NCBI GenBank assembly: GCA_944392835.1
Contig: CALXYB010000002.1
Span: 95,917 to 159,916 of the forward strand
Source of the DNA: an uncultured Alphaproteobacteria bacterium
GTDB taxonomy: Bacteria > Pseudomonadota > Alphaproteobacteria > RF32 > CAG-239
Reading direction: 5' to 3'
DNA: 64,000 nt
In this document: positions 6,383 to 49,199 of the stretch, in pieces
Position numbering within the stretch: the first letter of the stretch is position 1
Layout: the number at the start of each line of letters is the position of its first letter
Notes under the pieces: generated by a model
Database searches by the model: none
The model's input: the letters and a program-made list of their open reading frames with translations, nothing else
Told to the model about the DNA's origin: nothing
Translations under genes and position numbers: made by a program

Positions 6383-6388
6383 AAAAAA

Positions 6389-9310: not shown

Positions 9311-9311
9311 C

Positions 9312-10067: not shown

Positions 10068-10078
10068 TTGTTAATCCT

Positions 10079-11452
10079 TTAATTAAACCAATTTATAAGA
10101 CGTTGAACATTGCCGATTTCGTGAATCTGCATTTCGTGGTTGTTGAGTTTTTTGTCTTTCTTGTAGGTTGCCGGCATAATGGCATTAGCAAAGCCCAGTT
10201 TATGTGCTTCTTTCAGGCGCGAATTGGGCTGGCTCACAGCTCTAATTTCGCCCGAAAGCCCGATTTCACCGAAGATTACAGTATCTGAGGGTAATGGCTT
10301 GTTCGTCATTGATGATATGACAGCCATAGCAACCGCCAAATCAGCCGCCGGCTCAGAAATTTTTAAACCGCCGGCAATATTCAAATAAATGTCCTGAGAG
10401 CTTAAGTTCATTCCGCAACGGGCTTCCAGAACAGCCAAAACCATTGCCAAACGGTTGGAATCCCAGCCAACGACAGCGCGCTTGGGGCTGGCATAGCTCG
10501 TTGGGCTTACCAAAGCTTGAATCTCTACCAAAACCGGTCTGGAACCTTCTATTCCGGCAAAAACGCAAGAGCCAGATATATTGCCTTGTCTTTCCGCCAA
10601 AAACAAAGCTGATGGGTTTTCAACCTCTACCAGACCTTTGTCCTGCATTTCAAAAACGCCGATTTCATCCGTTGCACCGTAGCGGTTTTTTACCGCGCGC
10701 AAAATACGGAAATGGTGCCCTCTCTCGCCCTCAAAATACAAGACCGTATCTACCATATGTTCTAAAACGCGCGGACCTGCTATAGCTCCCTGTTTGGTAA
10801 CATGACCAACCAGAAAGAGCACAAAGCCTTTTTTCTTGGCCAGCTTAATAAGCTCATAAGCGCAAGCACGAACTTGAGCCACACTGCCCGGAGTTGATTC
10901 AACTTCTTCCAGATACATGGTTTGAATTGAGTCTATGATGACAACGGCGGCATCTGACTTATTCAGTGTTTCAATTATGTCTTTGACATCCGTTGTTGAA
11001 GCCAGCTTGACCGGAGATTGTTCCAAGCCTAATCTTTTGGCACGAATCCGCACTTGGTCTATGGCCTCTTCTCCTGAAATATAATAACATTCGGGATGTG
11101 TCGGCGCATTGGCTATACTGGCACAAACTTGCAACAATAAAGTGGATTTGCCGATACCCGGATCACCGCCGACCAAAATGGCTGAGCCCGGAACTAAGCC
11201 GCCGCCTGAAACGCGGTCTAATTCTTTTATTCCCGTGGGAATCCGGCTCAAGGCGGTTTCTTCGCCGCTTAGGGCAACAAATTCAAGCAACTTCCCCTTC
11301 TTTTTGGCCGGAAGATTGGAAAAACCATCACCGCCGACTTTTTCTTCAACAATGGTGTTCCATTCGCCGCAAGCATCACACTTGCCCTGCCATTTGGGAT
11401 ACATACTGCCGCAATTTTGGCAGACAAATTCGCTTCCGCCTTTCTTGGCCAT
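10079..11452 (-). CDS. radA: DNA repair protein RadA/Sms
   Basis: N-terminal C4 zinc finger, RecA-like Walker A (GDPGIGKST), KNRFG motif and Lon-like C-terminus. Confidence 0.93.
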   Translation of the reverse strand: MAKKGGSEFVCQNCGSMYPKWQGKCDACGEWNTIVEEKVGGDGFSNLPAKKKGKLLEFVALSGEETALSRIPTGIKELDRVSGGGLVPGSAILVGGDPGIGKSTLLLQVCASIANAPTHPECYYISGEEAIDQVRIRAKRLGLEQSPVKLASTTDVKDIIETLNKSDAAVVIIDSIQTMYLEEVESTPGSVAQVRACAYELIKLAKKKGFVLFLVGHVTKQGAIAGPRVLEHMVDTVLYFEGERGHHFRILRAVKNRYGATDEIGVFEMQDKGLVEVENPSALFLAERQGNISGSCVFAGIEGSRPVLVEIQALVSPTSYASPKRAVVGWDSNRLAMVLAVLEARCGMNLSSQDIYLNIAGGLKISEPAADLAVAMAVISSMTNKPLPSDTVIFGEIGLSGEIRAVSQPNSRLKEAHKLGFANAIMPATYKKDKKLNNHEMQIHEIGNVQRLINWFN

Positions 11453-15132: not shown

Positions 15133-16158
15133 TTAATCAATTATCTTCATCGTAAATTTTTCATTTGTCGGTGCAGGAGCTTCGCTTTGCGGGGTCGGTA
15201 TCATACCGGTTTTGCGTTTTTGCTCCAAGATATCAATAATCATATCAAGTTCTGCTGCTGAGGCATATTGCAAAACAACCTTACCCCCGCCTTGTTTGCT
15301 TGGCGAAATTTTGATACGGAGACCAAGATTTTTATTCAAATCTTTTTCTATCTCCACAATATCTTCATCTTTTGCCTTTTTGGGTTCTTTGGGCTCGGGA
15401 TTTTTTTGCTTGGCAACGAGCTCCTCAACCTGACGGACATTTAAATCTTTTGCAATTATCTGTTTTGCCAAGGCTTCTGCATTTTCCAGACCAACCAAGG
15501 CTCTGGCATGTCCGGCAGATAATTTACCCTCACGCACCATTACTTTTACCGAATCGGGCAGGGATAATAAGCGCAAAGTATTGGCAACATGACTGCGTGA
15601 TTTTCCGACAATTTGTGCCAAAGCTTCCTGCGTGTGCGAAAACTCATCTATCAAACGCTGAAAGCCCTCGGCTTCTTCTATGGCAGATAAATTCTCGCGC
15701 AAGAGGTTTTCAACCAAAGCGACTTCCAAGACCTCTTTGTCGTCCATCTCTTTGACAATCACGGGAACAGACTTTAGTCCGGCAAGTTTGGAGGCACGCC
15801 AACGACGCTCTCCGGCAATAATCTCATATTTATCACCTTTGCGACGAACCAGCAAAGGCTGCAAAACGCCTTTTTCCTTGATTGATTCAACCAAAGCATT
15901 AAGCGCTTCTTCATCAAAATCCTTGCGCGGTTGAAAAGGGCTCGGATAAAGAGAATCTATGGCAACAGTATCATCAGCTGGTTGAACGGTTTGGGTCGGT
16001 GTATCATTTAAGGCCTCATCCAGATTAAATTCGCTATCACCTAACAAAGCTCCCAAGCCACGGCCCAAACTCTTTCTTTTGCCGTTGTGTGATGTTTCTT
16101 CGTGTTTGGGAGTATCGCTCAAAATATCTAAATCATCCAAATTTGAATTTTCTAACAT
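15133..16158 (-). CDS. parB: Chromosome partitioning protein ParB
   Basis: ParB box GERRWRA, an HTH and a C-terminal dimerisation domain. Confidence 0.93.
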   Translation of the reverse strand: MLENSNLDDLDILSDTPKHEETSHNGKRKSLGRGLGALLGDSEFNLDEALNDTPTQTVQPADDTVAIDSLYPSPFQPRKDFDEEALNALVESIKEKGVLQPLLVRRKGDKYEIIAGERRWRASKLAGLKSVPVIVKEMDDKEVLEVALVENLLRENLSAIEEAEGFQRLIDEFSHTQEALAQIVGKSRSHVANTLRLLSLPDSVKVMVREGKLSAGHARALVGLENAEALAKQIIAKDLNVRQVEELVAKQKNPEPKEPKKAKDEDIVEIEKDLNKNLGLRIKISPSKQGGGKVVLQYASAAELDMIIDILEQKRKTGMIPTPQSEAPAPTNEKFTMKIID

Positions 16159-16931
16159 GCCAATAATTCCTTCTCTCTTTTCAAAACTTCGCCGGTTAGG
16201 CTAATATAGGCTTGTGAGCCCGGACATCTGAAATCATAAATCAAAACAGGTTTGCCGTGAGAGGGAGCCTCAGAAACACGCACATTTCTCGGAATGACGG
16301 TTTGGTATACTTTTTTGCCAAAGAAATTTCTGACATCGTCTTCAACCATTTGAGACAAATTGTTACGCTTGTCATACATAGTCAAGACTACACCTTGAAG
16401 CTCTAACTTTGGATTGAAAGCACGTTTAATTTGATTGATGTTGCGAATCAAATCCGTAATACCCTCAAGAGCCAAAAATTCGCATTGCAATGGTACAATG
16501 ACAGCATCTGCGGCAACCAGAGCATTGATGGTTACCAAGCTTAAAGACGGCGGACAATCTATCAAAACATAGTCATAGTTTATGACATCTTTGCCTAAAG
16601 CATTGCGCAAGGCAAATTCTCTGTGTTCTACATCAACCAATTCAACCTCGGCACCGGCAAGGTCCGCGGAAGAGGGCACCAGAGAGAAGTTTGGAATCTC
16701 TGTCCAAACAACGGCTTCGTTAATTCTTTTTTCGCCAAGAAGAACCTCATAAGATGATGCCATTCTGCCGGTTTTGTTGATACCCATTGAAGTTGTGGCA
16801 TTGCCCTGAGGGTCAAGATCAATTACCAAAACTTTTTTTCCGGCAGCAGCCATTGCGGTTGCCACATTAACCGTGGTGGTGGTTTTGCCAACACCGCCTT
16901 TACGATTCGCTATAGCAATAATTCTTGGCAT
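16152..16931 (-). CDS. parA: Chromosome partitioning ATPase ParA
   Basis: Deviant Walker A (KGGVGKTT). Confidence 0.93.
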   Translation of the reverse strand: MPRIIAIANRKGGVGKTTTTVNVATAMAAAGKKVLVIDLDPQGNATTSMGINKTGRMASSYEVLLGEKRINEAVVWTEIPNFSLVPSSADLAGAEVELVDVEHREFALRNALGKDVINYDYVLIDCPPSLSLVTINALVAADAVIVPLQCEFLALEGITDLIRNINQIKRAFNPKLELQGVVLTMYDKRNNLSQMVEDDVRNFFGKKVYQTVIPRNVRVSEAPSHGKPVLIYDFRCPGSQAYISLTGEVLKREKELLAC

Positions 16932-17560
16932 TATTTAACTCCTTTAAGTTTTTTGATTTCGGTTATCAATAAAATTGCGCCTTCATCGCTTTGTTTGCTC
17001 GGCACAGCTTCATAAGTAAAAGTCCAGCTCTTTTGAGCCTCTGCAATTTCTTCTTTGTATTTTTTTCCTTTGGGGAAAATACAAAGCGTTTTTTTTGATG
17101 AAAACTTTGATGCATAAAAAAGCAAATCTTTAAGTGAGCACATTGCTCTTGAGGTTATGACATCAACAGACGGGATTTTGATGTTTTCAATGCGGTCATT
17201 GATGATTTTTACATTGTTTATTCCGGTAAGATTCTTCACCTCATTTAAATACAGTGTTTTCTTAGCAATGCTTTCCACTAAAAAGAAATTTAAATACGGT
17301 GTTTTTTCTGCTGCCATTATTGCCAGCACCATTCCCGGAAAACCAGCCCCAGAGCCGAAATCAACGACATTTCTGGCAGTATCCGGAATATATTTAAACA
17401 GCTGAGCAGAGTCTAAAAAATGTCTGTTCCAAGCATCCTCTAAAGACGCATTGCTGACCAGATTAAACTTTTTTTGCCACTCATGAAGAGAGGCCTCGTA
17501 AGTTTTCAAACGCTCAAATGTTTCACGTGAAACATTGTATGTGTCCATAAATTTTTTCAT
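16931..17560 (-). CDS. rsmG: 16S rRNA m7G527 methyltransferase RsmG (GidB)
   Basis: SAM motif DFGSGAGFPG. It sits in the gidA-gidB-parA-parB cluster. Confidence 0.9.
   Translation of the reverse strand: MKKFMDTYNVSRETFERLKTYEASLHEWQKKFNLVSNASLEDAWNRHFLDSAQLFKYIPDTARNVVDFGSGAGFPGMVLAIMAAEKTPYLNFFLVESIAKKTLYLNEVKNLTGINNVKIINDRIENIKIPSVDVITSRAMCSLKDLLFYASKFSSKKTLCIFPKGKKYKEEIAEAQKSWTFTYEAVPSKQSDEGAILLITEIKKLKGVK
17519..17534. other. parS centromere site (perfect TGTTTCACGTGAAACA palindrome) inside rsmG
   Basis: Exact 16-bp match to the universal chromosomal parS consensus. Confidence 0.85.
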
Positions 17561-17618
17561 AAAATATTTATATATTTTTTCAATTTAATTTAAAACCCCA
17601 TTTATGAAGTTATAAACA

Positions 17619-17662
17619 CAAAAAAAGTCTTTATTTTAAAAAGAATCTTAAAACAAAGACTT
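17619..17662 (-). terminator. Putative rho-independent terminator after the PHP gene
   Basis: Stem aagtcttt/aaagactt followed on the minus strand by T7; the loop is rather long. Confidence 0.45.
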
Positions 17663-17709
17663 AGACAGCGTTATTTGACTCAAAATCTGAAGATTATTTT
17701 ATACAAAAA

Positions 17710-18528
17710 TTACTTCTGAAGCTTCCAGCGATTCGTGTAGTTTAATTCGGTCAGAAGATTCTCAGCTTCAGCGAAGTATCTTCCGAGCAAATCAACAGAG
17801 TGGGCATCATCGTTAATAACAATCGGAACATCTCTTTTGGCCAGCTCTTTCAGCATCCATGTATGCGGATGTTGCTCTCCGGCTTTGGTCCAGCCACTCG
17901 TATTTAACTCAAAGGGGTGTTTGGTCTTATCTAATGCTTCTATGACCATCCATTTATATTCATCCCATTCCGGCTCCAAACCTAACCCGAAAATTTTGAT
18001 AACATCTAAATGCGCGATGAAATCAAAATAACCGCTTTTTATAGATTCTATGACATTCAGCCAATAGTTCTTTATGCCGTCCTTCAAGGTTTCATCATCT
18101 ACTTGAATATTTGACCATTTCATGTGGTAAATATTCTGAACCCAGCTGGCATCATGATTCATTAAGTTATGAGTTGAGCCTATAAGATAATCTACATTGA
18201 GGCGATTCTTCAGTTTTTCAAAATCGCGGCGCCAATCTGCTGATTTGTAATAATCAACCTCAAAACCGACATAAACTTTTATTTTATGCCTTGCTGCGGC
18301 TTCTCTTATCTTATCGGCGGTCTTTAAATACACCGTTTCGGCCTTGGCAAAGTCGTCAAAATTCTGAGATGACCAGCAATATGACCCGGGCTTGCAAATT
18401 AGGTGATTGGATATGCCTAATTCCGTAAATCCGATTGATTCGGCTTTATCCATCATTTCATCAGGAGAATTATGCCCATCGTAGATGCCAAAATTATTTG
18501 TATGCGTGTGATAAGAAAAAGTTTGCAT
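17710..18528 (-). CDS. PHP-domain phosphoesterase (histidinol-phosphatase/YcdX-like)
   Basis: N-terminal H-x-H metal motif (YHTHTNN) and further His/Asp clusters (STHN, IAHLD, DDAHS) typical of PHP. Confidence 0.7.
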   Translation of the reverse strand: MQTFSYHTHTNNFGIYDGHNSPDEMMDKAESIGFTELGISNHLICKPGSYCWSSQNFDDFAKAETVYLKTADKIREAAARHKIKVYVGFEVDYYKSADWRRDFEKLKNRLNVDYLIGSTHNLMNHDASWVQNIYHMKWSNIQVDDETLKDGIKNYWLNVIESIKSGYFDFIAHLDVIKIFGLGLEPEWDEYKWMVIEALDKTKHPFELNTSGWTKAGEQHPHTWMLKELAKRDVPIVINDDAHSVDLLGRYFAEAENLLTELNYTNRWKLQK

Positions 18529-19157
18529 TATTTTAACCCCAAAATTTCATATACATCTTTATGGCACAAATCATCTAATTCTGCTTTCAACCCCATTCCC
18601 GTATTGATTAGTTTTTGAACAAGATCTTGGGGTAATTTATATCTTTGGCCTATGGCTTGAGCTCTTTTTTCAAAGGGTATCATTGACAGACCTTCAAATA
18701 GCCTATCTGTGAACTGAACAATACGATCGTAAACATCGTATTCCCAATTTTTCAATATTTCCCGAGCCTCAAGAATATCTGCTTTGGGGTAAGAAGGATA
18801 ATCGTCTACATCAATATTTTTTCCAGGAAAAGTATGACTTAAACAAGTGCGGGCAGGGCGCTCCCAGCCCATTGACATGAGCTCCTGATAACCAACAAGT
18901 CCGTGAAAATGACCTATTTTCTTCTCATTATATTTTTTCCCATAATCATGCAAAAGACCGCAAATATATGCCGTCTCAGGATTTACCTCTTTTATGTTTG
19001 CAGCAATGGCGCGGGAAGCAAAAGCAATGCCTTGTGTGTGAAAAATATATTCATCCATATAAACGAAATTATCATTTTCTTGTCTATATCTTAATCCATC
19101 CCACCACAGGCGCATCGCCTCACGCATATCAGGACATTTTAGAGAAAGTATTAGCAT
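18528..19157 (-). CDS. HD-domain phosphohydrolase (YqeK-like), paralog 1
   Basis: HD superfamily motifs H..x(n)..HD (IFHTQG ... GLLHDYGK). Confidence 0.7.
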   Translation of the reverse strand: MLILSLKCPDMREAMRLWWDGLRYRQENDNFVYMDEYIFHTQGIAFASRAIAANIKEVNPETAYICGLLHDYGKKYNEKKIGHFHGLVGYQELMSMGWERPARTCLSHTFPGKNIDVDDYPSYPKADILEAREILKNWEYDVYDRIVQFTDRLFEGLSMIPFEKRAQAIGQRYKLPQDLVQKLINTGMGLKAELDDLCHKDVYEILGLK

Positions 19158-19160
19158 AGG

Positions 19161-19778
19161 CTAGTTTACTCCCAATAAGCGATAAATATCGCAACCGCAA
19201 CGCCTATCAAAATAGTTTTTTAATCTTAAAGCCTGGCGATAGCGTTTTTTGATGAGTATTGTAGGGAGTCTATATTTGTCCTTTACATAAGCCATACGTT
19301 CTTTAATCGTACCAAAGCTCATACCGGTTACAAGCAAATCACAAAGCTGAATCAATCGGTCATAGTCGTTATATTCAATTGAGGATAGGATTTTTTTTGT
19401 CTTACGCATTTCTGGATAAGTGTACTCAGTATACTTAAAATCTTTATCAGGAAAAGTGTGGGTTAAACAAACTCTGGCAACTTCATCAAAGCCTAATTTG
19501 TTCATCTCCTTATAGCCGGTCAGGCCATGAAAATATTGTTTGCTATCGGCATCGCATATCATCTTACCATAATCATGCAACAAACCAAATATATAAGCCT
19601 TCTGAACATCCAGATATTGTAATCTTGAGGCAATCATCTCCGCGCAACAAGCAACCAAACAGCAATGGCTCCGATAAGATTTTTCAAAATAAAAAGCAAA
19701 ACGCGGTTGTTCTTCACGCATTTTGACCAAACCATCGTCAAATAAGTCAAGTGCTTGCTTTATGCTCGGACAAGTCAT
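19161..19778 (-). CDS. HD-domain phosphohydrolase (YqeK-like), paralog 2
   Basis: Colinear with paralog 1 (GLLHDYGK, HGLTGY, CLTHTFP). The 4-nt gap to mnmG indicates a tandem duplication in the same operon. Confidence 0.7.
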   Translation of the reverse strand: MTCPSIKQALDLFDDGLVKMREEQPRFAFYFEKSYRSHCCLVACCAEMIASRLQYLDVQKAYIFGLLHDYGKMICDADSKQYFHGLTGYKEMNKLGFDEVARVCLTHTFPDKDFKYTEYTYPEMRKTKKILSSIEYNDYDRLIQLCDLLVTGMSFGTIKERMAYVKDKYRLPTILIKKRYRQALRLKNYFDRRCGCDIYRLLGVN

Positions 19779-19781
19779 TTC

Positions 19782-21638
19782 TCACCTCTTTACATAACCC
19801 AAAACTGCTGTTATGGCCGCCGGCGTTACCCCAGGGATTCGCGAAGCTTCGCCAATGGTTGCCGGACGAACCTTGCTTAGCTTAGCAACCATCTCTCGCG
19901 ATAAGCCGCCTATTTTTGAATAATCTATATCATCTCTCAATTTCAGTTTTTCATCTTTTTTGAAAACTTCAATGTCCGCCATTTGGCGTTTGATATATCC
20001 GGCATAGCGTGCATCAATCTCTATCTGCTCATAAACATCGGCCGGAATATCTGACAGCTCGGGAAAGATTTGACCAATTGTTTCACGTGAAACACCGTCA
20101 TAAGACATTACATTAAAGGCTGTTCTGTGTGTGCCGTCTTTTTTGGTATGAATCCCGAATTTTTCAAGCTCGTTCGGCGTGATTGTCAGGCTTTCGCTTA
20201 TGCTGCGATAATGGCGAATTTTATCTCTTTTGGCTTTAAATACAGTGTATCTATGCTCGCCGACACAGCCGATTTCGTAGCCTTGCTCCGTCAAACGCGC
20301 ATCTGCATTATCCGCACGCAAGAATAACCGATATTCTGAACGAGATGTAAACATACGATAGGGCTCATCAACGCCTTTGGTAATTAAATCATCAACCATT
20401 ACGCCAATATAGGCGTTGCTACGGTCAATGAAAAATTCACGACCTTTGCCTTCAGCTTTTAAGGCCGCATTTACACCTGCTAATAACCCCTGTGCTGCAG
20501 CTTCTTCATAGCCGGTTGTGCCGTTAATCTGACCTGCCAAAAAGAGGTTTGGAGCCTTTTTGACCTCAAGCGTATGACTGAGCTCTTGCGGATCAACATA
20601 GTCATATTCAATAGCATAAGCAAAACGCAAAATTTCAACATTCTCCAAACCCTTCATTGTATGAATGAAGGCATCCTGAACATCTGCCGGAAGTGAGGTT
20701 GAAATACCGTTCGGATAAACAACATCCGTATTCAAACCTTCAGGCTCCAGAAAAATCTGGTGGCTGGTGCGGTCGGCAAATTTGACCAGCTTATCTTCAA
20801 TGCTTGGGCAATATCTCGGACCAACGCCGGTAATCAAACCAGAGAACAATGCGCATTTGGAAAAGTTATCTCTGATTATTTTATGCGTTTCCTCATTGGT
20901 TTGTGTGATGTGGCATTCTATTTGCGGATTGGTAATCTTTTCCGTTAAATAAGAAAAAGGCTCGGAATTTTCATCGCCGCTTTGGGTTTCCAAAATATCC
21001 CAATTTATGGTTTTGCCATTCAGGCGGGCAGGGGTTCCTGTCTTCAAACGGCCAACTTTGAGCCCCAAAGACTTTAAATACGGTGTTATACCGACACAAG
21101 CTGCATCTCCAACACGACCTCCCGGCGTGGCAACATGCCCCGTGAACATAATGCCGTTCAAAAAAGTGCCGGTTGTTAAAACAACTGCTCCGGCTTCGTA
21201 GGCTGTTCCATCTGCCAAGGTTACGCCGACAACGCTATTGTCTTTTATCAGCAAACCTTCTACCGCCGCTTCAATCAGGGTTAAATTTTTCTGCTCTTGC
21301 AAAGCCTCTAACATATATTTACGATAAAGTTCTCTATCTGCTTGCGCGCGAGGGCCTCTTACTGCCGGTCCTTTGGAGGCGTTTAACATACGAAATTGTA
21401 TGCCCGCCTTATCAATGACTTTACCCATTAAGCCATCAAGCGCGTCAATTTCTCTGACTAAATGTCCTTTGCCTAAACCACCGATTGCCGGATTGCAAGA
21501 CATCTCGCCAATGCGGTCAATGCGATGTGTGATTAACGCGGTTTTTGCACCTATTCTGGCTGCTGCCGCGCAAGCCTCACAACCGGCATGTCCGCCGCCG
21601 ACAACAATGACATCAAATTTATTATCTTTATCGCTCAT
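19782..21638 (-). CDS. mnmG: tRNA uridine-5-carboxymethylaminomethyl synthesis enzyme MnmG (GidA)
   Basis: FAD-binding motif [13 protein letters not shown] in a 618 aa GidA. Confidence 0.95.
20079..20094. other. parS centromere site (perfect TGTTTCACGTGAAACA) inside mnmG
   Basis: Exact 16-bp consensus palindrome. Confidence 0.85.
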
Positions 21639-21705
21639 TTATTTTGCCTTTTTTATTTTGCTGTATTCTATCATGTAAATCTTATTAACCAGTTAATATG
21701 TCAAC

Positions 21706-21741
21706 AGCAAATAAAGACCCGAACAAAATGTTCAGGTCTTT
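21706..21741 (-). terminator. Putative terminator downstream of mnmE
   Basis: 12-bp stem with one mismatch (aaagacccgaac / gttcaggtcttt) flanked by T-rich sequence. Confidence 0.4.
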
Positions 21742-21755
21742 ATTCTTATTTTTTA

Positions 21756-23102
21756 TTATTTTCCGATACAGAAACTACCGAAAATCTTATTTAATATATC
21801 ATCAACTTCTATGCGGCCGGTAATCTTACTCAAGCCTCTTGCAGCAAGCCGTATATCCTCTGCTGAAAGCTCTATCTCTTTATCAAAAGAAAAACGCTCC
21901 AGATTATCCAAAGTTTCGGCTAAAGCCTCACGATAACGTTGGCGCGTGATAAGCAAATTAGAATTTGCTGTAAATCTTTCTTTGATTTGCTGATATATAA
22001 CTTCCATTAAGTCGGCAATACCTTGTTTGTGTTTTGCAGAGATAACAACACAACTTTGTTTTTTGAGATTTGAACATTGTTCAAAAGTTAAATTATCAGA
22101 TTTGTTCGCAACATATATCGCTTTGTTTTTAAAAGAATTTTTAATATTGTCAAAGATTTGAACAGAGTCTTTTGAAGCATCAAATAAACAAAGAACCAAA
22201 TCAGCATCAGCGATTTTGCGGAAAGCAATTTCTATACCTTGTTTCTCAATTTCTTCTTCTACTTCTCTAATGCCTGCCGTATCCGTAAACATTACGGGAT
22301 AACCTTTAATATCCAAATGAACATCTACAGCGTCTCGTGTGGTTCCGGCAATGGATGATACGATTGCTGCTTCACGATTGACAACAGTGTTCAACAAACT
22401 TGATTTGCCGGCATTCGGCGGACCAACAATAACAACACGAAAACCCTCACGTAATCTTTCGCCGATTGAATCAGTGTTCAAGTGCTTAGAAATGGCTGTT
22501 TTAAGTTTAAATACATCGTTCAAAAGTTTATCAACCAACTCTTGCGGAATGTCCTCATCCGGAAAATCTATATAAGCCTCAAGATAAGCCATTATCTTAA
22601 TCAGCTCTTCTCTCCAGCCGTCATACAGATTTTTTAAACCGCCTTCCATTTGGCGCATGGCATATTTTTGTTGTTCAGATGTTTCAGAATCAATCAGGTC
22701 TGCTAAACCTTCGGCTTCTGTTAAATCCATTTTGCCGTTGTGAAAAGCACGTCTGGAAAATTCGCCGGGCTCAGCCATACGAAAGTCCGGAATTTTGCTT
22801 AGGTTCTCTAGAACTGAAGCAATTACCGCCTTAGAGCCGTGAGTCTGAAATTCTACAATATCTTCTCCCGTAAAAGAATGGGGAGCCTTAAAATAAAGCA
22901 GCAAACATTTATCCAATGTTTCACGGGAAACAATGTCTTTGATATCCGTAAAATATGCATAACGCGGTTTTAGGCTCTTTTCTTTCAAGTTTGTCAGCTT
23001 GGCAACGGCTTCTTTTGCTTTTGCTCCAGAAACACGAATAACAGCCACACCAGATTTGCCATAAACCGTTGACAGGGCATAAATTGTTTGATTATCCATC
23101 AT
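21756..23102 (-). CDS. mnmE: tRNA modification GTPase MnmE (TrmE)
   Basis: G-domain motifs (GPPNAGKSSL, DTAG, NKSD) and the C-terminal CxGK motif. Confidence 0.95.
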   Translation of the reverse strand: MMDNQTIYALSTVYGKSGVAVIRVSGAKAKEAVAKLTNLKEKSLKPRYAYFTDIKDIVSRETLDKCLLLYFKAPHSFTGEDIVEFQTHGSKAVIASVLENLSKIPDFRMAEPGEFSRRAFHNGKMDLTEAEGLADLIDSETSEQQKYAMRQMEGGLKNLYDGWREELIKIMAYLEAYIDFPDEDIPQELVDKLLNDVFKLKTAISKHLNTDSIGERLREGFRVVIVGPPNAGKSSLLNTVVNREAAIVSSIAGTTRDAVDVHLDIKGYPVMFTDTAGIREVEEEIEKQGIEIAFRKIADADLVLCLFDASKDSVQIFDNIKNSFKNKAIYVANKSDNLTFEQCSNLKKQSCVVISAKHKQGIADLMEVIYQQIKERFTANSNLLITRQRYREALAETLDNLERFSFDKEIELSAEDIRLAARGLSKITGRIEVDDILNKIFGSFCIGK

Positions 23103-24806: not shown

Positions 24807-24845
24807 AAGCGCCGGATTTTTTATAATTCGGCGCTTGGCTTTTTA
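24807..24845. terminator. Bidirectional rho-independent terminator
   Basis: Stem aagcgccg/cggcgctt with T-runs on both sides, between two convergent genes. Confidence 0.6.
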
Positions 24846-25727
24846 AAAACTTAAAACAGAATCTGAGGCTGTGTCTAAAATCGCTTCTTTGCCCAAAGGT
24901 AAGGTCATTTGCGGCAAGGTATGTCCCGTATCAAAACCTGCAATAACCGGAATATGACGCAAAGCCTCAAAAGCTTGTAATTTTTGCTTTACGGCTGCCA
25001 CATCAACAAGGCTGTTTTGCATAAACCTACCGATGATTAAGCCTCTGATATTTTTTGCAAAATCGTAATTAAACAAAGCCCACAGGTTACGCATAAACAT
25101 ATTAAAAGTTTCTGTACCGCATAAGTCATCTTCTTCGGCAATGATTATCATATCATCAAAAACCGGATAATATTTTGTTCCGGCAAGCATTATTTGGCTG
25201 CATAGATTGCCTCCGACAAGACGACCTTTGGCTTTTCCTTCATTGATGATTGTTAGCCCAGAATTGGCAAAGGTTTGCGTTTTGGAAATATGCGTATCCA
25301 TATAAGCCTTTGCCGGATAGTAATTTGCTCCTTTTTGCTCTAATGCTATAGAGATAAAATTTTTTATTCCATAATCCTCTACATCACCGTTTAAGGCTTT
25401 GAGATTCGGCCCTAAATATTGAACTATGCCAGTTTGCGCTAACAAAGCATTCAGTAAAACCGTGATGTCCGAATAACCACACAAGGGCTTGGTTATTTTA
25501 GAAAAATCAAGCTTTGGTAAAAGCTCTACGGAGTTAAAACCGCCGCGCGAGGCTATAATAACCTCCGCTTCGCTTGTTTGTGCCAGCATAAAGTCTTCTA
25601 ATTTACTTTTTGAAGTAAAAAACTCTACACTAATATCATTATCTGCCAAGCGTTTGACGGCGGTTTCTGTCTCTTGCTCCGATTTTAAGGGCAGAGAAGG
25701 GGAAATTACTCCGATTTTGTGTTGCAT
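24843..25727 (-). CDS. ldcA: LD-carboxypeptidase (muramoyltetrapeptide carboxypeptidase, peptidase S66)
   Basis: 294 aa, colinear with the LdcA family (peptidase S66). Confidence 0.75.
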   Translation of the reverse strand: MQHKIGVISPSLPLKSEQETETAVKRLADNDISVEFFTSKSKLEDFMLAQTSEAEVIIASRGGFNSVELLPKLDFSKITKPLCGYSDITVLLNALLAQTGIVQYLGPNLKALNGDVEDYGIKNFISIALEQKGANYYPAKAYMDTHISKTQTFANSGLTIINEGKAKGRLVGGNLCSQIMLAGTKYYPVFDDMIIIAEEDDLCGTETFNMFMRNLWALFNYDFAKNIRGLIIGRFMQNSLVDVAAVKQKLQAFEALRHIPVIAGFDTGHTLPQMTLPLGKEAILDTASDSVLSF

Positions 25728-25729
25728 TA

Positions 25730-27565
25730 TCAGAATCCTGCGGCTGTTTGTATTTTATTTGACATATAAGCACGTTGTACTTGTCTGCTTACAACATTTT
25801 CATCATTGCGGATGATGTTGGCAAGTCTTTTATAAAAAATGCTTCCGGGTGCTAAAATGCGGTCAAAATTGCCATTATCTGCAAAACGCAACAAGTTGCC
25901 TTTTACTCTTTCCTTCTGAGCGGTCTTTTCTTCTTCAGACATCGGTTGCCCCGTCATAAAAGAGTAAAAACGATGTACGGCCGCAGCTTCCAAAGCATCT
26001 CTTGAGGAGATTGAGGCAACATCATTGAGCAAATTATCGTCTATCTTGACACTGCCGTTTACCAAGTCACGATAGCCCAAAACATCACCGTTTTCCTTAA
26101 CACCCCAGATTTGAGCTTGCGCCGTGCGGTAATCAAAGCTTTCTATAACTTTGCGGCGTGCATTGATGTCTTCCTGATTGAACTCTTTATGTTTGCTTGC
26201 TTCATCAAAAACTTTTCCTAAGCCCTCTTTAATACGGCGAGCATAAACAATTTGCGAGCTTCCGCCCTCAATCTTTGCACCTGTTTCCAACAAAACAACA
26301 GCTAACATAAAGGAAACTTTGGGCATAGCCTCGCCGCTTCTTAAAGCCTCGGCAATTTGTTTTCTATCCATATTTTCCGTATATTCGTCACCAAGCATTT
26401 TGGCAAAAGCCGGCATCTTGTTAGAACCCATCGGCACCATATGATCCAGAAGATGATTATATTCATTGTCCGACTTGGTAGTGTGAATCTTCTTCATCTC
26501 GGTTTCAAAAACCGCTCTTGTTTGCGGATTGTCAAAAATCTGTGATGTCAGAGACTGAGGATTCTCCAAAATATCGGCCATAAAAGCAAAAATCGGCTTC
26601 TCTGCTTCTACACTTACCTGAATGACGGAGCTGTCTTTTAATAAGTCATTGGCTTGCATGGCATGAATTGAAGCCAGCTGCAAAGCTCCGAGCTCTGTTT
26701 CCGGTGTGCCTTTTTCCTGATTGTAAGCTCTTTGTTTTTCCAACAATTTCATAACTTTTTTCAGCATTCTGACATCATTTTGAAACTGTTGTTCAACTTG
26801 TGTTGAAAACTCGGTTAAAACATCTTTATGCAACAAAGAAAGTTCTTTTACCGTGTTCATGGATAAATCCTTAAACTCCATACCTTGCGGCATAAATTCT
26901 TTGTTGATTAAGTGATGCCAACGGGCTTTCAAAGATTTTGCAGCCAGAGATTTTTTCTCAAACATATCTTTTTTCATCTCTTTTTCATGCGCTTTTAAGG
27001 CTGCAATTTTTTCCGGCGTATCATATCCGGGAAGTGTCATAGCAATAACTTTCGGATAAATTTTGCTGTACAAATAAAGCGGCGGACCGTAAACAAAGGG
27101 GTCGCAAATCTCGGGGCCGGTCTGGTTATCGGTATTTACGCGGCCAGACATCAGAGATAAATTGAACTTTTCGCCAAAATGATGTGCTCTTGCGGCTTGG
27201 TTAACAAACTTGTAGCAAGAGTGAAACATATTATAGTCATTTTCTTCAACCGTTGCCTCCGCACCACGTTTGTCTCTTTGGCGCATGGGGCCGAGGTGGT
27301 CGGAAAAGTCAAAACGAAAATCTTTTTTCAGCTGTTCATAAAGCTCTTTTGACAATAATTTTCTATTTTCTTCTTCCACTACTGCTGCGTAAGTATCATT
27401 GACGCGTTTTAAAATCTTATACATAAAGCTTTCGGCATAAGGAAAAAGTTTCGGATTATAAGGGTTTTTACTTCCGTCGCTATAAGTTTCTCCTAAAGAA
27501 GCTTCTGTATCAAGGTATGAAAATTCGGGTTTTTTGGCAAGTACGGCCTGACTATATTTACTCAT
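25730..27565 (-). CDS. Large hypothetical protein (611 aa), no recognisable domain
   Basis: Long clean ORF separated from LdcA by 2 nt. The sequence is charged and has no signal peptide or TM helix. Confidence 0.6.
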   Translation of the reverse strand: MSKYSQAVLAKKPEFSYLDTEASLGETYSDGSKNPYNPKLFPYAESFMYKILKRVNDTYAAVVEEENRKLLSKELYEQLKKDFRFDFSDHLGPMRQRDKRGAEATVEENDYNMFHSCYKFVNQAARAHHFGEKFNLSLMSGRVNTDNQTGPEICDPFVYGPPLYLYSKIYPKVIAMTLPGYDTPEKIAALKAHEKEMKKDMFEKKSLAAKSLKARWHHLINKEFMPQGMEFKDLSMNTVKELSLLHKDVLTEFSTQVEQQFQNDVRMLKKVMKLLEKQRAYNQEKGTPETELGALQLASIHAMQANDLLKDSSVIQVSVEAEKPIFAFMADILENPQSLTSQIFDNPQTRAVFETEMKKIHTTKSDNEYNHLLDHMVPMGSNKMPAFAKMLGDEYTENMDRKQIAEALRSGEAMPKVSFMLAVVLLETGAKIEGGSSQIVYARRIKEGLGKVFDEASKHKEFNQEDINARRKVIESFDYRTAQAQIWGVKENGDVLGYRDLVNGSVKIDDNLLNDVASISSRDALEAAAVHRFYSFMTGQPMSEEEKTAQKERVKGNLLRFADNGNFDRILAPGSIFYKRLANIIRNDENVVSRQVQRAYMSNKIQTAAGF

Positions 27566-27622
27566 TTTGGTTTTCTCTTTCTCGTTTTGTTGTTTTCTGT
27601 TCTTTTGTAATTTTTGCTTTAT

Positions 27623-27656
27623 CCTCTGATTATCAAATTACCCAAATAATCAGAGG
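27623..27656. promoter_or_regulatory. Perfect 11-bp inverted repeat (cctctgattat-N12-ataatcagagg) in the 5' region of the 611-aa gene
   Basis: Read directly from the sequence, 58-90 bp upstream of the start codon. Confidence 0.4.
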
Positions 27657-28004
27657 CTCATAAGCTCCAAAACCGAAAGAGTTGCTGTATTATTCTTTAT
27701 TTTCATTTTCTGCTATATCTTTACATTAAAAAAATTAACCATCAAAAAACAAAGCTTGTTGATTTTTCATCCTCCAAGCACCCAAGCCTTGCCAAAAAGT
27801 AAAAGTGCTTAGAGGTTCATAATCAACAACAACAAAATGCTGATTAGCAGAATTTTTGCAGAAATAAGGGCGAAAGCTTCCGGTAAAAATTCGGAAGTTT
27901 TGAAAATAGAATATGTTTTGCCAAAAAATGACATCTTTCGCCTTTGTTTTTGTTAAACCGCGTTAATTATATGGACAGAAAATATTTTATGTCAACTTAT
28001 TTTA

Positions 28005-28034
28005 TAAAAAAAAATCCCTCTTTTGTGAGGGATT
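28005..28034 (-). terminator. Rho-independent terminator of rho
   Basis: Stem aatccctc/gagggatt followed on the minus strand by T8, directly 3' of rho. Confidence 0.7.
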
Positions 28035-28044
28035 TTTTATTTTT

Positions 28045-29298
28045 TTAAGAATTCATGGTATTGAAAAAGTCTTCGTTGTCTTTGGATTGTCTGAGCTTAT
28101 CCAACAAAAATTCCATACCATCGGTCATACCCATTTGCATCAAGACACGACGCAATACCCACATTTTGGAAAGTGTGGCTTTGTCTACCAACAACTCTTC
28201 CTTACGAGTGCCTGAACGCGTAATATCTATGGTCGGGAAGAGACGCTTATCGGTTAACTTTCTATCCAAAATGATTTCGGAGTTACCTGTTCCTTTGAAC
28301 TCCTCAAAAATAACCTCATCCATACGAGAACCCGTATCAATCAAAGCTGTGGCAATGATTGTTAAAGAACCTCCTTCCTCTACATTACGTGCAGCACCGA
28401 GCAGACGTTTCGGTCTTTGCAGAGCATTGGCGTCAACACCTCCGGTTAAAACTTTACCGGATGAAGGAATAACCGTATTATATGCACGGCCCAAACGTGT
28501 GATGGAGTCAAGCAAGATGACAACATCTTTTTTGGTTTCTACCAAACGCTTGGCTTTTTCAATAACCATTTCGGCAACCTGAACATGGCGCGCAGCCGGC
28601 TCATCAAAGGTGGAAGAAATAACCTCACCTTTAACTGAACGGCTCATATCCGTTACTTCTTCCGGACGTTCATCAATCAATAAAACCATTAAATAAACTT
28701 CAGGGTGGTTGGTGGCTATGGCATGTGCAATGTTTTGCAACATTACGGTTTTACCTGTTCTCGGAGGAGCAACAATCAGACCGCGTTGACCTTTGCCTTG
28801 CGGGGCAATCAGGTCAATAATGCGCGTGGTATAGTCTTTTTCGCCGCAGATGATATCAAAGTCTAGTTTTTTGATCGGATAAAGCGGGGTTAGGTTATCA
28901 AAATTTACACGAAGTTTTGATTTTTCGGGATCTTCAAAGTTAATGGTGTTAATCTTGGTTAGAGCAAAATAACGTTCATTATCTTTTGGACCACGGATTT
29001 CACCTTCAACCGTATCTCCGGTGCGCAGACCAAATTTTTTAACTTGAGCCGGTGATACATAAATATCATCAGGGCTGGCCAAATAATTGGATTCAGCAGA
29101 ACGCAAAAAACCAAAGCCATCTTGCAAAACTTCTATCGTTCCTTCGCCATAAATGGTTTGATCATCAGATGCCACTTTTTTCATAATGGCAAAAATTAAA
29201 TCCTGAACACGCATAGATGATGCGTCTTCTATTCCTAATTCCTCCGCTTGAGTTAATAACTCCTTGGGAGATTTTTGCTTTAAATCTTTTAAATGCAT
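28045..29298 (-). CDS. rho: Transcription termination factor Rho
   Basis: N-terminal RNA-binding domain and a RecA-like ATPase domain with Walker A GKT; 417 aa. Confidence 0.96.
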
Positions 29299-29824
29299 TG
29301 TAACCTTGATATATTATTGGGTGTGAAAGTAATTAAGAAAAGGGAAATATCCCTCTGTATAGTATTATTAGAATTACTGTATGTCTGTTTTATATTATTT
29401 AAATGAATGAAAGTCAATTAAATGTTGTTTGATTTTTATACACAGTCAAAAAGCCCCATATAAATATTTTTAAAATTTTAGTTGTTATTTGTATATCCCT
29501 GCTGTTTATGTGTATAAGTTTTTATTAACAGAGATATCCAAAAGTTAAAAGAATGTTAATAAGATTGTTAACGGAATTTAAGAATTATTAACGAATCGTT
29601 AACTTTGTTTTTCTTGATTCTGTAAACTTTAAATTGAGTATTTTGTTGATAAGTTTTTTTATCAACCCTTGTGCGAAAAAATATACCCCTGTGCGTAAAG
29701 TTGTATATTGGATTTTACATTGTGGTGATTAGTTTGTATAAATATGCAAGAGAGCTTAGTTATGCACAGTTTTGGGCTTGTTTGTGTATAAGTGAGTCAG
29801 GGTTTTGATTTTAAGGAATTTTTT
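29299..29824. other. Candidate chromosomal replication origin (oriC): AT-rich 0.5 kb region with DnaA-box-like and CtrA-box motifs
   Basis: Three exact copies of TTATACACA/TGTGTATAA (29436-29444, 29509-29517, 29783-29791) plus a 1-mismatch copy (29733-29741). A perfect CtrA box lies at 29588-29603. The region sits between rho and coaE-dnaQ. Confidence 0.55.
29588..29603. promoter_or_regulatory. CtrA-box consensus TTAA-N7-TTAAC
   Basis: ttaacgaatcgttaac, with extra overlapping TTAA half-sites upstream. Confidence 0.5.
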
Positions 29825-30406
29825 ATGAAATTAGCAGCTATCACAGGTTCTATCGGTTGCGGAAAAACGACTTTGGCTTCTATGGTCAGACGTTTGGGAT
29901 ATTGTGTTTATGACGTGGATGGCTGGGTTCGCCGTCTCTATTTTAAAAAAGATTTTATTAAAGTTATTGAACAGCATTTTCCGCAAGTGGTTGAAAACGG
30001 AAAGGTTAATAAAAGAGCTTTGCGGAATATTGTGTTTAATGATAATGCGCGTCTTAAGGAATTGGAAGGACTTATTCATCCTTTTTTGCGGCGCTATCTT
30101 AAAAGAGTTATTCATAAACACGCACAAAGCAATGATTTGTTTTTCTTAGATGTTGCTTTGTTGTTTGAAATGAGATGGGATATTTATTGCGATTGCATTA
30201 TTGTTGCCGATGTGGATTATGAAACGCAGAAAAAACGCGTGATGGAGCGTGATAAGATTTCGGCTGAAGATTTTGAAAAGATTAACAACGTACAGTTAAG
30301 CAACAAGGCTAAAGTTTTGTTGGCTGATGTGGTGGTGGATACGGGAAGGCCGCAAAATTTGGTTTTTGCCGATATGGTTAGTATTGTTGATGGATTGGAA
30401 TGCTAA
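29825..30406 (+). CDS. coaE: Dephospho-CoA kinase
   Basis: N-terminal P-loop AITGSIGCGKTT. ATG 29825 is preferred over the tool start at 29792. Confidence 0.9.
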   Translation: MKLAAITGSIGCGKTTLASMVRRLGYCVYDVDGWVRRLYFKKDFIKVIEQHFPQVVENGKVNKRALRNIVFNDNARLKELEGLIHPFLRRYLKRVIHKHAQSNDLFFLDVALLFEMRWDIYCDCIIVADVDYETQKKRVMERDKISAEDFEKINNVQLSNKAKVLLADVVVDTGRPQNLVFADMVSIVDGLEC

Positions 30407-31098
30407 AAATGGTTAGAGAGATTGTTTTTGATACGGAAACAACAGGTTTTAATGCCGAAGAAGGTGAAAGATTGGTTGAAATCGGCGCTGTTGAACTTAT
30501 TAACCATATGCCGACAGGCAAAACTTATCATCAATATATCAACCCTGAAAAAGAAGTTCCAGAAGAAGCTTATAAAGTTCATGGTCTATCTTATGATTTT
30601 TTGAAGGATTTTCCGACTTTTGATAAGGTGGCTGATGAGTGGCTGGAGTTTATCGGAGAAGACAGTATTCTGGTTGCGCATAATGCACAATTTGATATTA
30701 ACTTTGTGAACTATGAACTTAAACAGCTCGGAAAACCAACTCTTTCTTGGGATAGAGTAGTTGATACCCTGGAAATTGCGCGTAATATGTTTCCGGGTGC
30801 CAGAAATAATTTGGATGCTTTGTGTAAGCGTTTCGGGGTTGATAACAGTAGTCGTACAAACCACGGCGCATTGCTTGATGCCGAGTTATTAGCAAAAGTT
30901 TATTTGGAGCTTTTGGGTGGTGAAGAACCGACAATGGGCTTGGAAAGCAAGCAGGAAACTAAGAAAACAGCAACTTTTGAAAGTCATGAGAACAAAACTT
31001 ATCGCGAGCCGCGTTCTTTTCCGCCGACAGAAGAGGAGCTGGAAGCACACAAAACTTTTTTGGAAAAAAAGCTTAAAGATGCCGTTTGGTTGTCTTAA
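30400..31098 (+). CDS. dnaQ: DNA polymerase III epsilon subunit (3'-5' exonuclease)
   Basis: Exo I motif FDTETTG and Exo III motif HGALLDAELLAKVY. Confidence 0.92.
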   Translation: MLKMVREIVFDTETTGFNAEEGERLVEIGAVELINHMPTGKTYHQYINPEKEVPEEAYKVHGLSYDFLKDFPTFDKVADEWLEFIGEDSILVAHNAQFDINFVNYELKQLGKPTLSWDRVVDTLEIARNMFPGARNNLDALCKRFGVDNSSRTNHGALLDAELLAKVYLELLGGEEPTMGLESKQETKKTATFESHENKTYREPRSFPPTEEELEAHKTFLEKKLKDAVWLS

Positions 31099-46717: not shown

Positions 46718-47185
46718 TTAATGTTGGTTTTTGCGATTGTTGTACATGGTTACAAAGTCAATCGGGTTTATCATAAACGGCGGAAGACCTCCCTCAACCA
46801 AACAATTGGTTACAACATTGCGTGCGAAGGGGAAGATAAGCCGCGGAATTTCAATCATCAATACCGGTTCAAGATGTTCGGCAGGAACATTTAAGGCAAC
46901 AACCGCCGCATAGGTTAATTCCAAGATAAAGAGTTTTTGTTGGTTGACATCGCCGTTCATGCTGATTTTAAGTTCAACATTGTAAAAATTTTCTTCCAAA
47001 GCACGATATGCAACCTCAACATTAATCTGAACATCAGGTGCAGATGTGATTTCCTTAAAAATTTCCGGCGCATGAGGAATTTCTAAAGATAAGTCTTTAA
47101 TATATTGCGTATTAATCATTATGGCCGGTTGATTGTTTTGTTGAGCAGTTTGCTCGTTAGCTGTGTTTTTGGGTTCTTTACTCAT
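46718..47185 (-). CDS. secB: Protein-export chaperone SecB
   Basis: 155 aa SecB fold sequence (FxIEKIYxKD-like N-terminus). Confidence 0.9.
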   Translation of the reverse strand: MSKEPKNTANEQTAQQNNQPAIMINTQYIKDLSLEIPHAPEIFKEITSAPDVQINVEVAYRALEENFYNVELKISMNGDVNQQKLFILELTYAAVVALNVPAEHLEPVLMIEIPRLIFPFARNVVTNCLVEGGLPPFMINPIDFVTMYNNRKNQH

Positions 47186-47331
47186 ATAATTTTCTCCTCA
47201 AACAGGGCGTTATTGTTAATTTTAGCAATACTATAAATAATATCAGTCGTCAAATATTTATAGTTGATAATAAACGCCAATTTAGCTATATATTAATAAG
47301 AAGATAGATTTAGATTTTTGATGAGGAAAAA

Positions 47332-48000
47332 ATGGCTGCGTATTTGGATATTATCATTTTGTTGGTTGTGGTGGTGTTGATTTTCAGTAAGCTTAAAAGT
47401 TTGCTTGGAACAAGGCCTGATAATTTTGAACAACACAAAATGTCTGACGAAAGCGCGGCCAAGATTTTTGATATCATTGTTAAAGAGGCTGAAAAAAAGG
47501 CTGCCGAAGAAGCGAATCAGGCTAAGGCTGAGGAAGTTAAGATTCCTGATGAAGAGCTGAGCGAAGTTGATAAAGTGTTGATGCAAATGCCCGGTTTTAA
47601 TCGTGAGAAGTTTTTGAGCGGTGCCGAAAAAGCTTTTGAGATTATTATTGTGGCTTTCAGCAAAGGAGATGTTGAAACACTTGAGATGTTGGTTAACAAA
47701 ACTTTGTTGAAGAAGTTTCAAGAGATTATTGAAAAGCGCAAAGCTGACGGTATTACTTCCGAGACGGATTTTATCGGCTTTGATGATGTTGAAATTGTTG
47801 ATGCAAAAATCACCAAAAACGGTGTTGCCAAAATTACCGTTAAGTTTGTCAGTGAGCAGGTTAATATTTTGAAAGATAAAAACGGCGAAGTTATTGAAGG
47901 TGATGAGAACTTTATTCAGAATATTACTGATAACTGGACCTTTGAAAGAGCTATCAGCTCTACCAACCCCAACTGGATGTTAATTTCTACGAAAAAATAA
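47332..48000 (+). CDS. Tim44-like domain protein
   Basis: N-terminal TM helix with a C-terminal Tim44/NTF2-like domain ending in W..S. Confidence 0.8.
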   Translation: MAAYLDIIILLVVVVLIFSKLKSLLGTRPDNFEQHKMSDESAAKIFDIIVKEAEKKAAEEANQAKAEEVKIPDEELSEVDKVLMQMPGFNREKFLSGAEKAFEIIIVAFSKGDVETLEMLVNKTLLKKFQEIIEKRKADGITSETDFIGFDDVEIVDAKITKNGVAKITVKFVSEQVNILKDKNGEVIEGDENFIQNITDNWTFERAISSTNPNWMLISTKK

Positions 48001-49199
48001 TGAAACGCGTTATTTTTACTTTTGCTCTTTCTCTGTTGCTTTTTGCTTGCGGCAAGGAAGAAGAAAAAACCAAAGAATCGGTTATAGAAAAAACCGAAGA
48101 AGTTGTCGTTGTGCCTGAAGTTGAGGTCTTGCCGACAACTTTTGGTGCTTTGGCAAATTGGAAAAATGATGATATGAGCCAAGCTATCCGCGCTTTTGCA
48201 GATTCTTGTGCTAAGATAAGCGGGGAGAAGGGCGAATATCTTTCTAACGCGATGGTCAAAATTAAAACCGCGAATTATCAGGCGATTTGTAGGGATTTTG
48301 CGGCGCGAGGGATTTTATCTGCAGATGATTTCAGAGCATTTTTGGAAAAGAATTTTATTCCTGCTTTAGTGGTCGGAAATGGCTCTGAAATCGGAAAATT
48401 CACATCATATTATGAATCCTCTCTCAATGCGTCTTATCACAAAAGCGATAAATATAAATATCCGATTTATGGTCGCCCGAATGATTTGATAGAGTTTAAT
48501 GTAAAAGATTTTGATGAAACGCAGCCCTCCAAAAGATATGTCGGACGGGTTAAGGGACAAAAGCTGGTGCCTTATTATACCCGCGCCGAAATTGAGGCCG
48601 GTGCCGGAGATGCGCCGGTGTTGCTTTGGGGAGATGATCCGGTTGATATTTATGTGATGCAGATTCAGGGTTCGGCGGTGGCTGATTTGGATGATGGTCG
48701 CAAGGTGCGTGTGGGTTATGCGGACAACAATGGGCATGCTTTTAAGGGAATCGGCAGCATATTGTTGAGTAAAGGCTTGATTAAGCCTGGCGAAGCCTCT
48801 ATGGGTAAAATCAAAAAATGGTTGAAGAAAAACGGTCAGTTGGCTTTGGATAATATGGCCGAGAACAAACGCTATGTTTTTCATCGCCTGGTGGATGCCG
48901 AAGGGCCGATTGGGGCGCAGGGTGTGCCATTGCGCGCCGGAAGGTCTTTGGCTGTTGACAGAAAATATATTCCGCTCGGGGCACTTTTGTGGTTGGAAAC
49001 AACCGGACCGGATAAGGAAAAAATTGAAAAACTGGTGGTGGCGCAAGATATCGGCGGCGCAATAAAAGGTGCGGTTAGAGGTGATTATTTTTGGGGTTCC
49101 GGCAAAGATGATGTTTTAGATTATGCCGGTCGGATGAACTCGGAAGGTCGTTATTTTATTTTGTTGCCCAAACAAACGGGAGTTGTGGCTGATGACTGA
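48000..49199 (+). CDS. mltA: Membrane-bound lytic murein transglycosylase A
   Basis: Lipobox LFACG, followed by MltA and 3D domains. Confidence 0.88.
   Translation: MKRVIFTFALSLLLFACGKEEEKTKESVIEKTEEVVVVPEVEVLPTTFGALANWKNDDMSQAIRAFADSCAKISGEKGEYLSNAMVKIKTANYQAICRDFAARGILSADDFRAFLEKNFIPALVVGNGSEIGKFTSYYESSLNASYHKSDKYKYPIYGRPNDLIEFNVKDFDETQPSKRYVGRVKGQKLVPYYTRAEIEAGAGDAPVLLWGDDPVDIYVMQIQGSAVADLDDGRKVRVGYADNNGHAFKGIGSILLSKGLIKPGEASMGKIKKWLKKNGQLALDNMAENKRYVFHRLVDAEGPIGAQGVPLRAGRSLAVDRKYIPLGALLWLETTGPDKEKIEKLVVAQDIGGAIKGAVRGDYFWGSGKDDVLDYAGRMNSEGRYFILLPKQTGVVADD

Follow-up and report, generated by a model that had tools for sequence, protein, structure and literature searches.

A candidate DnaA-dependent replication origin in the rho–coaE spacer of an uncultured gut alphaproteobacterium

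The rho–coaE locus and its gene neighbourhood

The DNA studied here is a stretch of 64 kb from an uncultured gut alphaproteobacterium, which we refer to as the window in the following. Near its middle, rho and coaE-dnaQ lie back to back, separated by 526 bp of non-coding DNA with 26% G+C (29299-29824). The open reading frames of this spacer top out at 45 aa and an Rfam search of it was without match; the Rfam matches at the locus are all sub-threshold and fall on the rho terminator hairpin, none of them in the spacer. An earlier note on this DNA had described rho as directly facing coaE-dnaQ across an AT-rich spacer of about 0.5 kb, and the NCBIfam equivalog models confirm this arrangement. 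On the right, coaE is preceded by a ribosome-binding site, AAGGA, 7 nt upstream of its ATG. The genes and sites of the neighbourhood are as follows.

15133-23102, minus strand: origin-proximal cluster of parB, parA, rsmG, a PHP-domain gene, two HD-domain genes, mnmG and mnmE (assigned by Pfam)
17519-17534: perfect parS site, TGTTTCACGTGAAACA, within rsmG/gidB
20079-20094: perfect parS site, TGTTTCACGTGAAACA, within mnmG/gidA
22917-22932: parS site with one mismatch, within mnmE/trmE
28045-29298, minus strand: rho (NCBIfam rho equivalog, E = 1e-205), the left boundary gene, reading away from the spacer
29299-29824: candidate oriC, by its motif content, the lack of an ORF above 45 aa and its conservation in 15 relatives
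29825-30406, plus strand: coaE, dephospho-CoA kinase (TIGR00152, E = 4e-37), the right boundary gene
30400-31098, plus strand: dnaQ, DNA polymerase III epsilon subunit (TIGR01406, E = 5e-86)

The genes parAB, rsmG, mnmG and mnmE and the three parS sites are found 6-14 kb from the spacer. For parS, 0.01 sites would be expected in the window; the two perfect copies that had been reported near the spacer are indeed present, and the one-mismatch site at 22917 adds a third. All three are located in coding sequence (rsmG, mnmG and mnmE), none in an intergenic region. Between 17710 and 19778, the PHP-domain gene and the two tandem HD/HDOD-domain genes split the usual gidA-gidB pair.

The locus thus has the rho ... 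coaE-dnaQ neighbourhood, with parAB-gidAB-trmE nearby, of the alphaproteobacterial reference cluster (PMC2818188). The gene order parAB-gidBA-trmE-rho, which the earlier note gave as the classical one, holds here for the members, which are all close by, and not for their contiguity, as four unrelated genes separate mnmE/trmE from rho. Neither hemE nor COG1806 borders the spacer, whose boundaries are rho and coaE, and the ORFs of the window contain no URO-D/hemE, hemH, maf or shikimate-dehydrogenase domain. The suggested loss of hemE, RP001, maf and aroE can be upheld as an absence from the locus, which extends to hemH and COG1806; the shikimate pathway probably still exists, to judge from the aroK and tyrA genes that the window contains.

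Some further features of the window are noted here in their own right. Downstream of rho, a symmetric A6-stem-T6 hairpin (28009-28038) is capable of terminating its transcription, and directly after this hairpin a perfect sigma-70 consensus promoter, TTGACA-18-TATAAT (27995-27966, minus strand), lies upstream of a 611-aa ORF. Together with an LD-carboxypeptidase, this ORF, which has no Pfam or NCBIfam match, is encoded in a 3.2-kb segment (24845-28036) that is missing in the near-identical locus L001 and present in L002-L005; the segment is thus an insertion, variable among strains, that lies directly left of rho. A small SRP RNA (RF00169, 60 bits; 6388-6483, minus strand) is the sole Rfam match of the window above the gathering threshold, no tRNA gene was found in the 64 kb, and a gene for a XerC/XerD-type tyrosine recombinase (57416-58321) is located about 28 kb to the right of the candidate origin.

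Motifs of the spacer and their conservation

When TTATNCACA is taken as the criterion for a DnaA box, as has been done for alphaproteobacterial origins (PMC1914354), the spacer holds four strict boxes, as compared to zero in the remaining 63.5 kb, and seven relaxed ones (TTATN[CA]ACA). Three of the strict boxes are copies of TTATACACA, one forward and two reverse as previously stated, at 29436 (plus strand), 29509 (minus strand) and 29783 (minus strand); these are the only copies in the 64 kb, for which shuffles expect 0.44. The earlier note had overlooked the fourth strict box, TTATGCACA at 29760, as well as TTATCAACA at 29644. The additional one-mismatch copy that it did list, TTTGTATAA, is present at 29733-29741 and overlaps with the -10 element, itself conserved, of the putative coaE promoter. 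With one mismatch allowed, five of the 30 matches to TTATCCACA in the window fall in the spacer. The spacer accounts for 0.8% of the window, yet it contains all four TTATNCACA boxes and both occurrences of TTAA-N7-TTAA, and neither motif is found in any of the 13 intergenic regions elsewhere that measure 100 bp or more. Over the roughly 92 kb examined around the spacer, from about -48 kb to +44 kb, there is no second DnaA-box cluster, and dnaA was not found.

A search with CoaE yielded 16 alphaproteobacterial loci (L001-L016) and two unrelated matches. All 16 loci come from uncultured organisms, mostly from the gut, and include Candidatus Scatocola faecigallinarum, the nearest named relative, which NCBI places in the Rhodospirillales, and 'Proteobacteria bacterium CAG:495'; the CoaE of L001 is 100% identical. 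The adjacency of rho, a gap of 480-530 bp and coaE-dnaQ is retained in 15 relatives of this Ca. Scatocola / CAG:495 group, down to 55% CoaE identity. An alignment of the spacers reveals about nine conserved DnaA-box-like elements in the same columns, with invariant columns at the boxes and at TGTTAATAA. For the motif sums, we used 14 non-redundant spacers and derived the expectation from first-order Markov resampling: TTATNCACA was observed 35 times (0.74 expected), TTATN[CA]ACA 82 times (4-9 per spacer; 2.6 expected in total) and TTAA-N7-TTAA 32 times (3.0 expected). The flanks, 7-12 kb per locus, are almost devoid of all three motif types. The predicted elements of the spacer are, from left to right:

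29389-29417, minus strand: putative rho promoter (-35 TTGACT 29417-29412, 17-nt spacer, -10 TATAAA 29394-29389)
29436-29444, plus strand: DnaA box 1, TTATACACA; TTAT..ACA columns invariant in 14 species
29458-29497: candidate DNA-unwinding element, the spacer's 40-mer of lowest stability, enclosed by boxes 1 and 2, which are inverted to each other
29509-29517, minus strand: DnaA box 2, TTATACACA; several relatives have the consensus TTATCCACA
29522-29530, plus strand: DnaA box 3, relaxed, TTATTAACA; TTATACACA or TTATCCACA in relatives; inverted repeat I8
29534-29542, plus strand: DnaA box 4, degenerate, ATATCCAAA; TTATCCAAA in most relatives
29545-29559: CtrA-type site 1, TTAAAAGAATGTTAA; overlaps DnaA box 5 with its right half
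29554-29562, minus strand: DnaA box 5, relaxed, TTATTAACA (TGTTAATAA on the plus strand), the spacer's best-conserved 9-mer
29588-29603: CtrA-type site 2, TTAACGAATCGTTAAC; palindromic over 15 bp, with GANTC at its centre (29593-29597)
29644-29652, minus strand: DnaA box 6, TTATCAACA; conserved in the spacer alignment
29659-29667, plus strand: DnaA box 7, TTATCAACC, the inverted partner of box 6
29714-29742, plus strand: putative coaE-dnaQ promoter (-35 TTTACA 29714-29719, 17-nt spacer, -10 TATAAA 29737-29742)
29760-29768, plus strand: DnaA box 8, TTATGCACA; TTAT.CACA columns invariant
29783-29791, minus strand: DnaA box 9, TTATACACA; from the motif scan and the spacer alignment

These boxes are of the TTATNCACA or TTATNAACA type, unlike those of the Caulobacter origin Cori, which are G-boxes. 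In a nearest-neighbour scan, the candidate unwinding element reaches -37.5 kcal/mol, as compared to a window mean of -51.8, and ranks fourth among the least stable stretches of the 64 kb; its sequence is conserved among the relatives as GTTATTTGT.TAT. The triplets TTG-TTA-TTT-GTA within it (29483-29494) could presumably be read as a DnaA-trio element, a reading that we have considered and do not claim.

Two outward-facing promoters appear to flank the core of the spacer, an assignment based on conserved hexamers with 17-nt spacing. Both hexamers of the putative rho promoter are conserved blocks in the alignment, and the coaE promoter region shows the conserved blocks ATTTTA and TATAAATA. A consensus promoter scanner listed neither of the two, as both use TATAAA as their -10 element. 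In the putative 5' leader of rho, a hairpin (AGAGGGATATTTCCCTTT, 29339-29356, minus strand) is kept by close relatives and may be a leader or attenuator element.

The sequence and position of the TTAA-N7-TTAA element at 29588-29603, described in the earlier note as a perfect CtrA box, stand; the name presupposes that CtrA exists in this lineage, for which reason we speak of CtrA-type sites. A second such element, at 29545, had been overlooked, and the two sites together constitute a 22-nt imperfect inverted repeat. Site 2 is identical in the six closest relatives, and farther ones carry other TTAA-N7-TTAA elements in the central segment. Across the clade, the TTAA halves are conserved and the N7 is variable, which is the pattern expected of a real protein-binding site, with positions shifted in distant species. 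With an approximate sequence of Caulobacter CtrA as the tblastn query, no response regulator was matched in the 324 kb searched. Furthermore, as some Rhodospirillales-type genomes are without ctrA (PMC2877005), its presence in this lineage is not to be presumed. Outside the candidate origin, TTAA-N7-TTAA occurs zero times in 63.5 kb, against about five expected from shuffles, and four times in about 150 kb of the relatives' flanks, a depletion that may stem from avoidance of spurious regulator sites, or from no more than coding constraints.

Other motifs known from origins are scarce. The spacer has no strict match to the IHF site WATCAANNNNTTR and two matches to the looser WATCAN5WTR, no Caulobacter W-box (TCCCCA), no GATC, and three GANTC, which are not clearly enriched. 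Over the whole window, 34 GATC sites are present where dinucleotide-preserving shuffles give 185 ± 12, an about fivefold shortage that suggests avoidance of a GATC-specific restriction system.

Strand composition around the spacer

Raw GC skew changes from negative to positive near 28-29 kb, with a cumulative minimum at 28701, within rho. The minimum had been predicted for 29.3-29.8 kb, an interval that the raw curve misses and that the third codon positions recover: their GC skew has its best-fit change point between 29298 and 29825, exactly at the spacer, where it rises from 0.02 to 0.31 with a log-likelihood gain of 87.6. TA skew is without a step at this point (0.09 versus 0.10).

When fourfold-degenerate sites are analysed, the term r, which does not depend on gene strand, amounts to +0.28 right of the spacer, as compared to +0.04 left of it, and the coding-strand term is alike on both sides (-0.15 to -0.23). 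With r close to zero and a similar coding-strand term, gene orientation alone accounts for the negative raw skew of the left side; 79% of the genes left of the spacer are co-oriented with a leftward fork. On the right arm, the skew of third positions is independent of gene strand, being +0.32 in plus-strand and +0.30 in minus-strand genes. The antisymmetric skew that is expected of bidirectional forks on both flanks was thus not found.

To follow the composition outward, we looked up the proteins of the window in further contigs (L019, L103), and a metagenome scan for the S41 peptidase added left flank in relatives. The skew of the right arm continues to +44 kb (L103). On the left arm, values around zero were obtained as far as -38 kb in this organism (L019) and as far as about -48 kb in its relatives, and no second step is seen across these extended flanks, from about -48 kb to +44 kb. 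The one-sided step is common to all relatives examined (L001-L016, L027-L061).

Codon bias was rejected as the cause of the missing left skew, as the plus- and minus-strand genes on the left would need opposite coding-strand terms. A recent inversion was likewise rejected, since the pattern is common to 15 diverged species and a block inverted in one of them is already locally skewed. In this species (L008), the secB-Tim44-mltA block (7808-10706; window 46743-49682) is inverted and moved beside dnaQ, and has a local positive skew. Skew therefore depends on position in this clade, is at equilibrium and re-equilibrates fast, so that the zero skew on the left represents a steady state. The origin-polarity step itself means that, on balance, rightward forks arise at the spacer. 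Its one-sidedness is no argument against an origin, because SkewDB lists about 250 chromosomes with little or no skew on one replichore, the cause of which is unexplained (PMC8941118). As in these, one replichore is strongly skewed here and the other is not; by comparison, the asymmetry is here resolved at fourfold sites, apart from gene-strand effects, and as a clade-wide steady state, within a scope of ±45 kb.

The spacer as a probable origin and its known counterparts

We conclude that the spacer at 29299-29824 is very probably the DnaA-dependent chromosomal replication origin of this organism. Its DnaA-box cluster is unique within the 92 kb examined; its boxes, its AT-rich stretch and its CtrA-type sites are conserved in 15 related species; the locus has the synteny of the alphaproteobacterial origin cluster; and a sharp change point of composition with origin polarity lies exactly at the spacer. 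The proposal of the earlier note is supported on all these grounds. Counted against it are the missing skew of the left arm, the lack of dnaA in the span, and the lack of a strict IHF site and of a W-box. As it presents itself, this is an ordinary origin of known type, of which the conserved one-sided skew is the sole unusual feature.

Judging from the arrangement of the motifs, we infer that DnaA would bind and unwind the spacer. It would fill about nine boxes, four of them strong (TTATNCACA) and the others weaker (TTATNAACA or TTATCCAAA types), and would melt the conserved stretch of lowest stability at 29458-29497, enclosed by the inverted boxes 1 and 2, from which the replication forks would depart. 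A CtrA-like repressor, if the lineage has one, might occupy the central TTAA-N7-TTAA sites, compete with DnaA and block initiation; as these sites overlap or abut boxes 4-5, they would be the likely seat of such a repressor, in a Caulobacter-like manner. The putative outward-facing promoters of rho and coaE-dnaQ would bracket this core.

The composition of the flanks invites a modified account, in which the spacer shares initiation with a second site, or sets up its leftward fork only part-time, such that forks of both directions copy the left flank about equally often. This would yield a step from about zero to +0.28 rather than from -s to +s, and it agrees with a skew that is flat for more than 44 kb on each side and recurs in all relatives, and with the fast equilibration seen in the L008 inversion, which makes the zero on the left a steady state. 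It is nevertheless distinctly unlikely: there is no second DnaA-box cluster within -48 kb, 79% of the left genes are co-oriented with a leftward fork, a one-sided skew as in the about 250 chromosomes of SkewDB (PMC8941118) need not reflect fork direction, and bacteria as a rule have single bidirectional origins. Unequal forks in general, with the rightward one launched always and the leftward one in about half of the cycles, or with an alternative site beyond -48 kb, appear unlikely to us; if true, unequal forks or a second site would provide a mechanistic explanation for the one-sided chromosomes in SkewDB.

It is less likely still that the spacer is a divergent promoter region only, where DnaA and a TTAA-N7-TTAA-binding protein regulate rho and coaE-dnaQ, and that the origin lies elsewhere, for instance beside dnaA. 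DnaA is a known transcription factor, two conserved outward promoters lie within the spacer, box 1 adjoins the -35 element of rho and boxes 8-9 are found past the coaE promoter, on its downstream side, and the DNA examined amounts to about 92 kb of the genome. However, about nine boxes and a conserved stretch of the unwinding type exceed the needs of an operator, the compositional change point of origin polarity lies exactly at the spacer, parS sites and parAB are adjacent, and the locus is the ancestral position of the alphaproteobacterial origin. Finally, the composition step could be regarded as the scar of a rearrangement or as an assembly join, with a coincidental cluster of motifs, considering that the skew is not antisymmetric and that some strains differ by a 3.2-kb indel next to rho, on its left. 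This is scarcely credible and effectively refuted by the identical junction and step in 15 independently assembled species; moreover, skew re-equilibrates after inversion in this clade, and the motif excess is replicated across 14 spacers.

Read as an origin, the spacer has counterparts in several known systems. For Azospirillum sp. B510 and for Magnetospirillum sp. AMB-1, the origin has been predicted within the order rho-hyp-hemH-hemE|ori|hyp-maf-aroE-coaE-dnaQ (PMC2818188). Both genomes share with our locus the outer synteny, rho ... coaE-dnaQ, and the shift of GC skew (PMC2818188), but keep hyp-hemH-hemE and hyp-maf-aroE between rho and coaE. Here, all six of these inner genes are missing, and rho and coaE therefore bound the origin directly.

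According to the published account (PMC1914354), Cori of Caulobacter crescentus, located between hemE and CC0001/COG1806, is likewise intergenic, with DnaA boxes, an AT-rich stretch and CtrA sites that overlap DnaA sites, and shares an outward-facing promoter inside the origin and the same conserved gene neighbourhood; Cori has five CtrA sites, as compared to two perfect CtrA-type sites here. Unlike Cori, the candidate origin is not bounded by hemE and COG1806, and it has neither a strict IHF site nor a W-box. Ioannidis et al. (2007) predicted the origins of Rickettsia, Wolbachia, Ehrlichia and Anaplasma in silico from TTATNCACA boxes, TTAA-N7-TTAA, an intergenic length of 380-620 bp and an AT content exceeding the average of the genome, features that are also present here. 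These origins have a hemE boundary and a WATCAN5WTR IHF site, whereas our locus has no hemE and two loose IHF matches. In the Anaplasmataceae, too, boundary genes have been rearranged while the origin was retained (PMC1914354).

For a widespread group of uncultured gut alphaproteobacteria, these results provide a well-supported position of the origin, which helps to orient MAG assemblies and is usable in growth-rate estimates from metagenomic peak-to-trough coverage. They indicate that the ancestral alphaproteobacterial origin outlasts the loss of its classical marker, hemE, from the locus. The conserved TTAA-N7-TTAA sites raise the question of CtrA-type control of initiation in a Rhodospirillales-like lineage, and the one-sided skew, being conserved, makes a genomic anomaly that is documented yet unexplained accessible to study.
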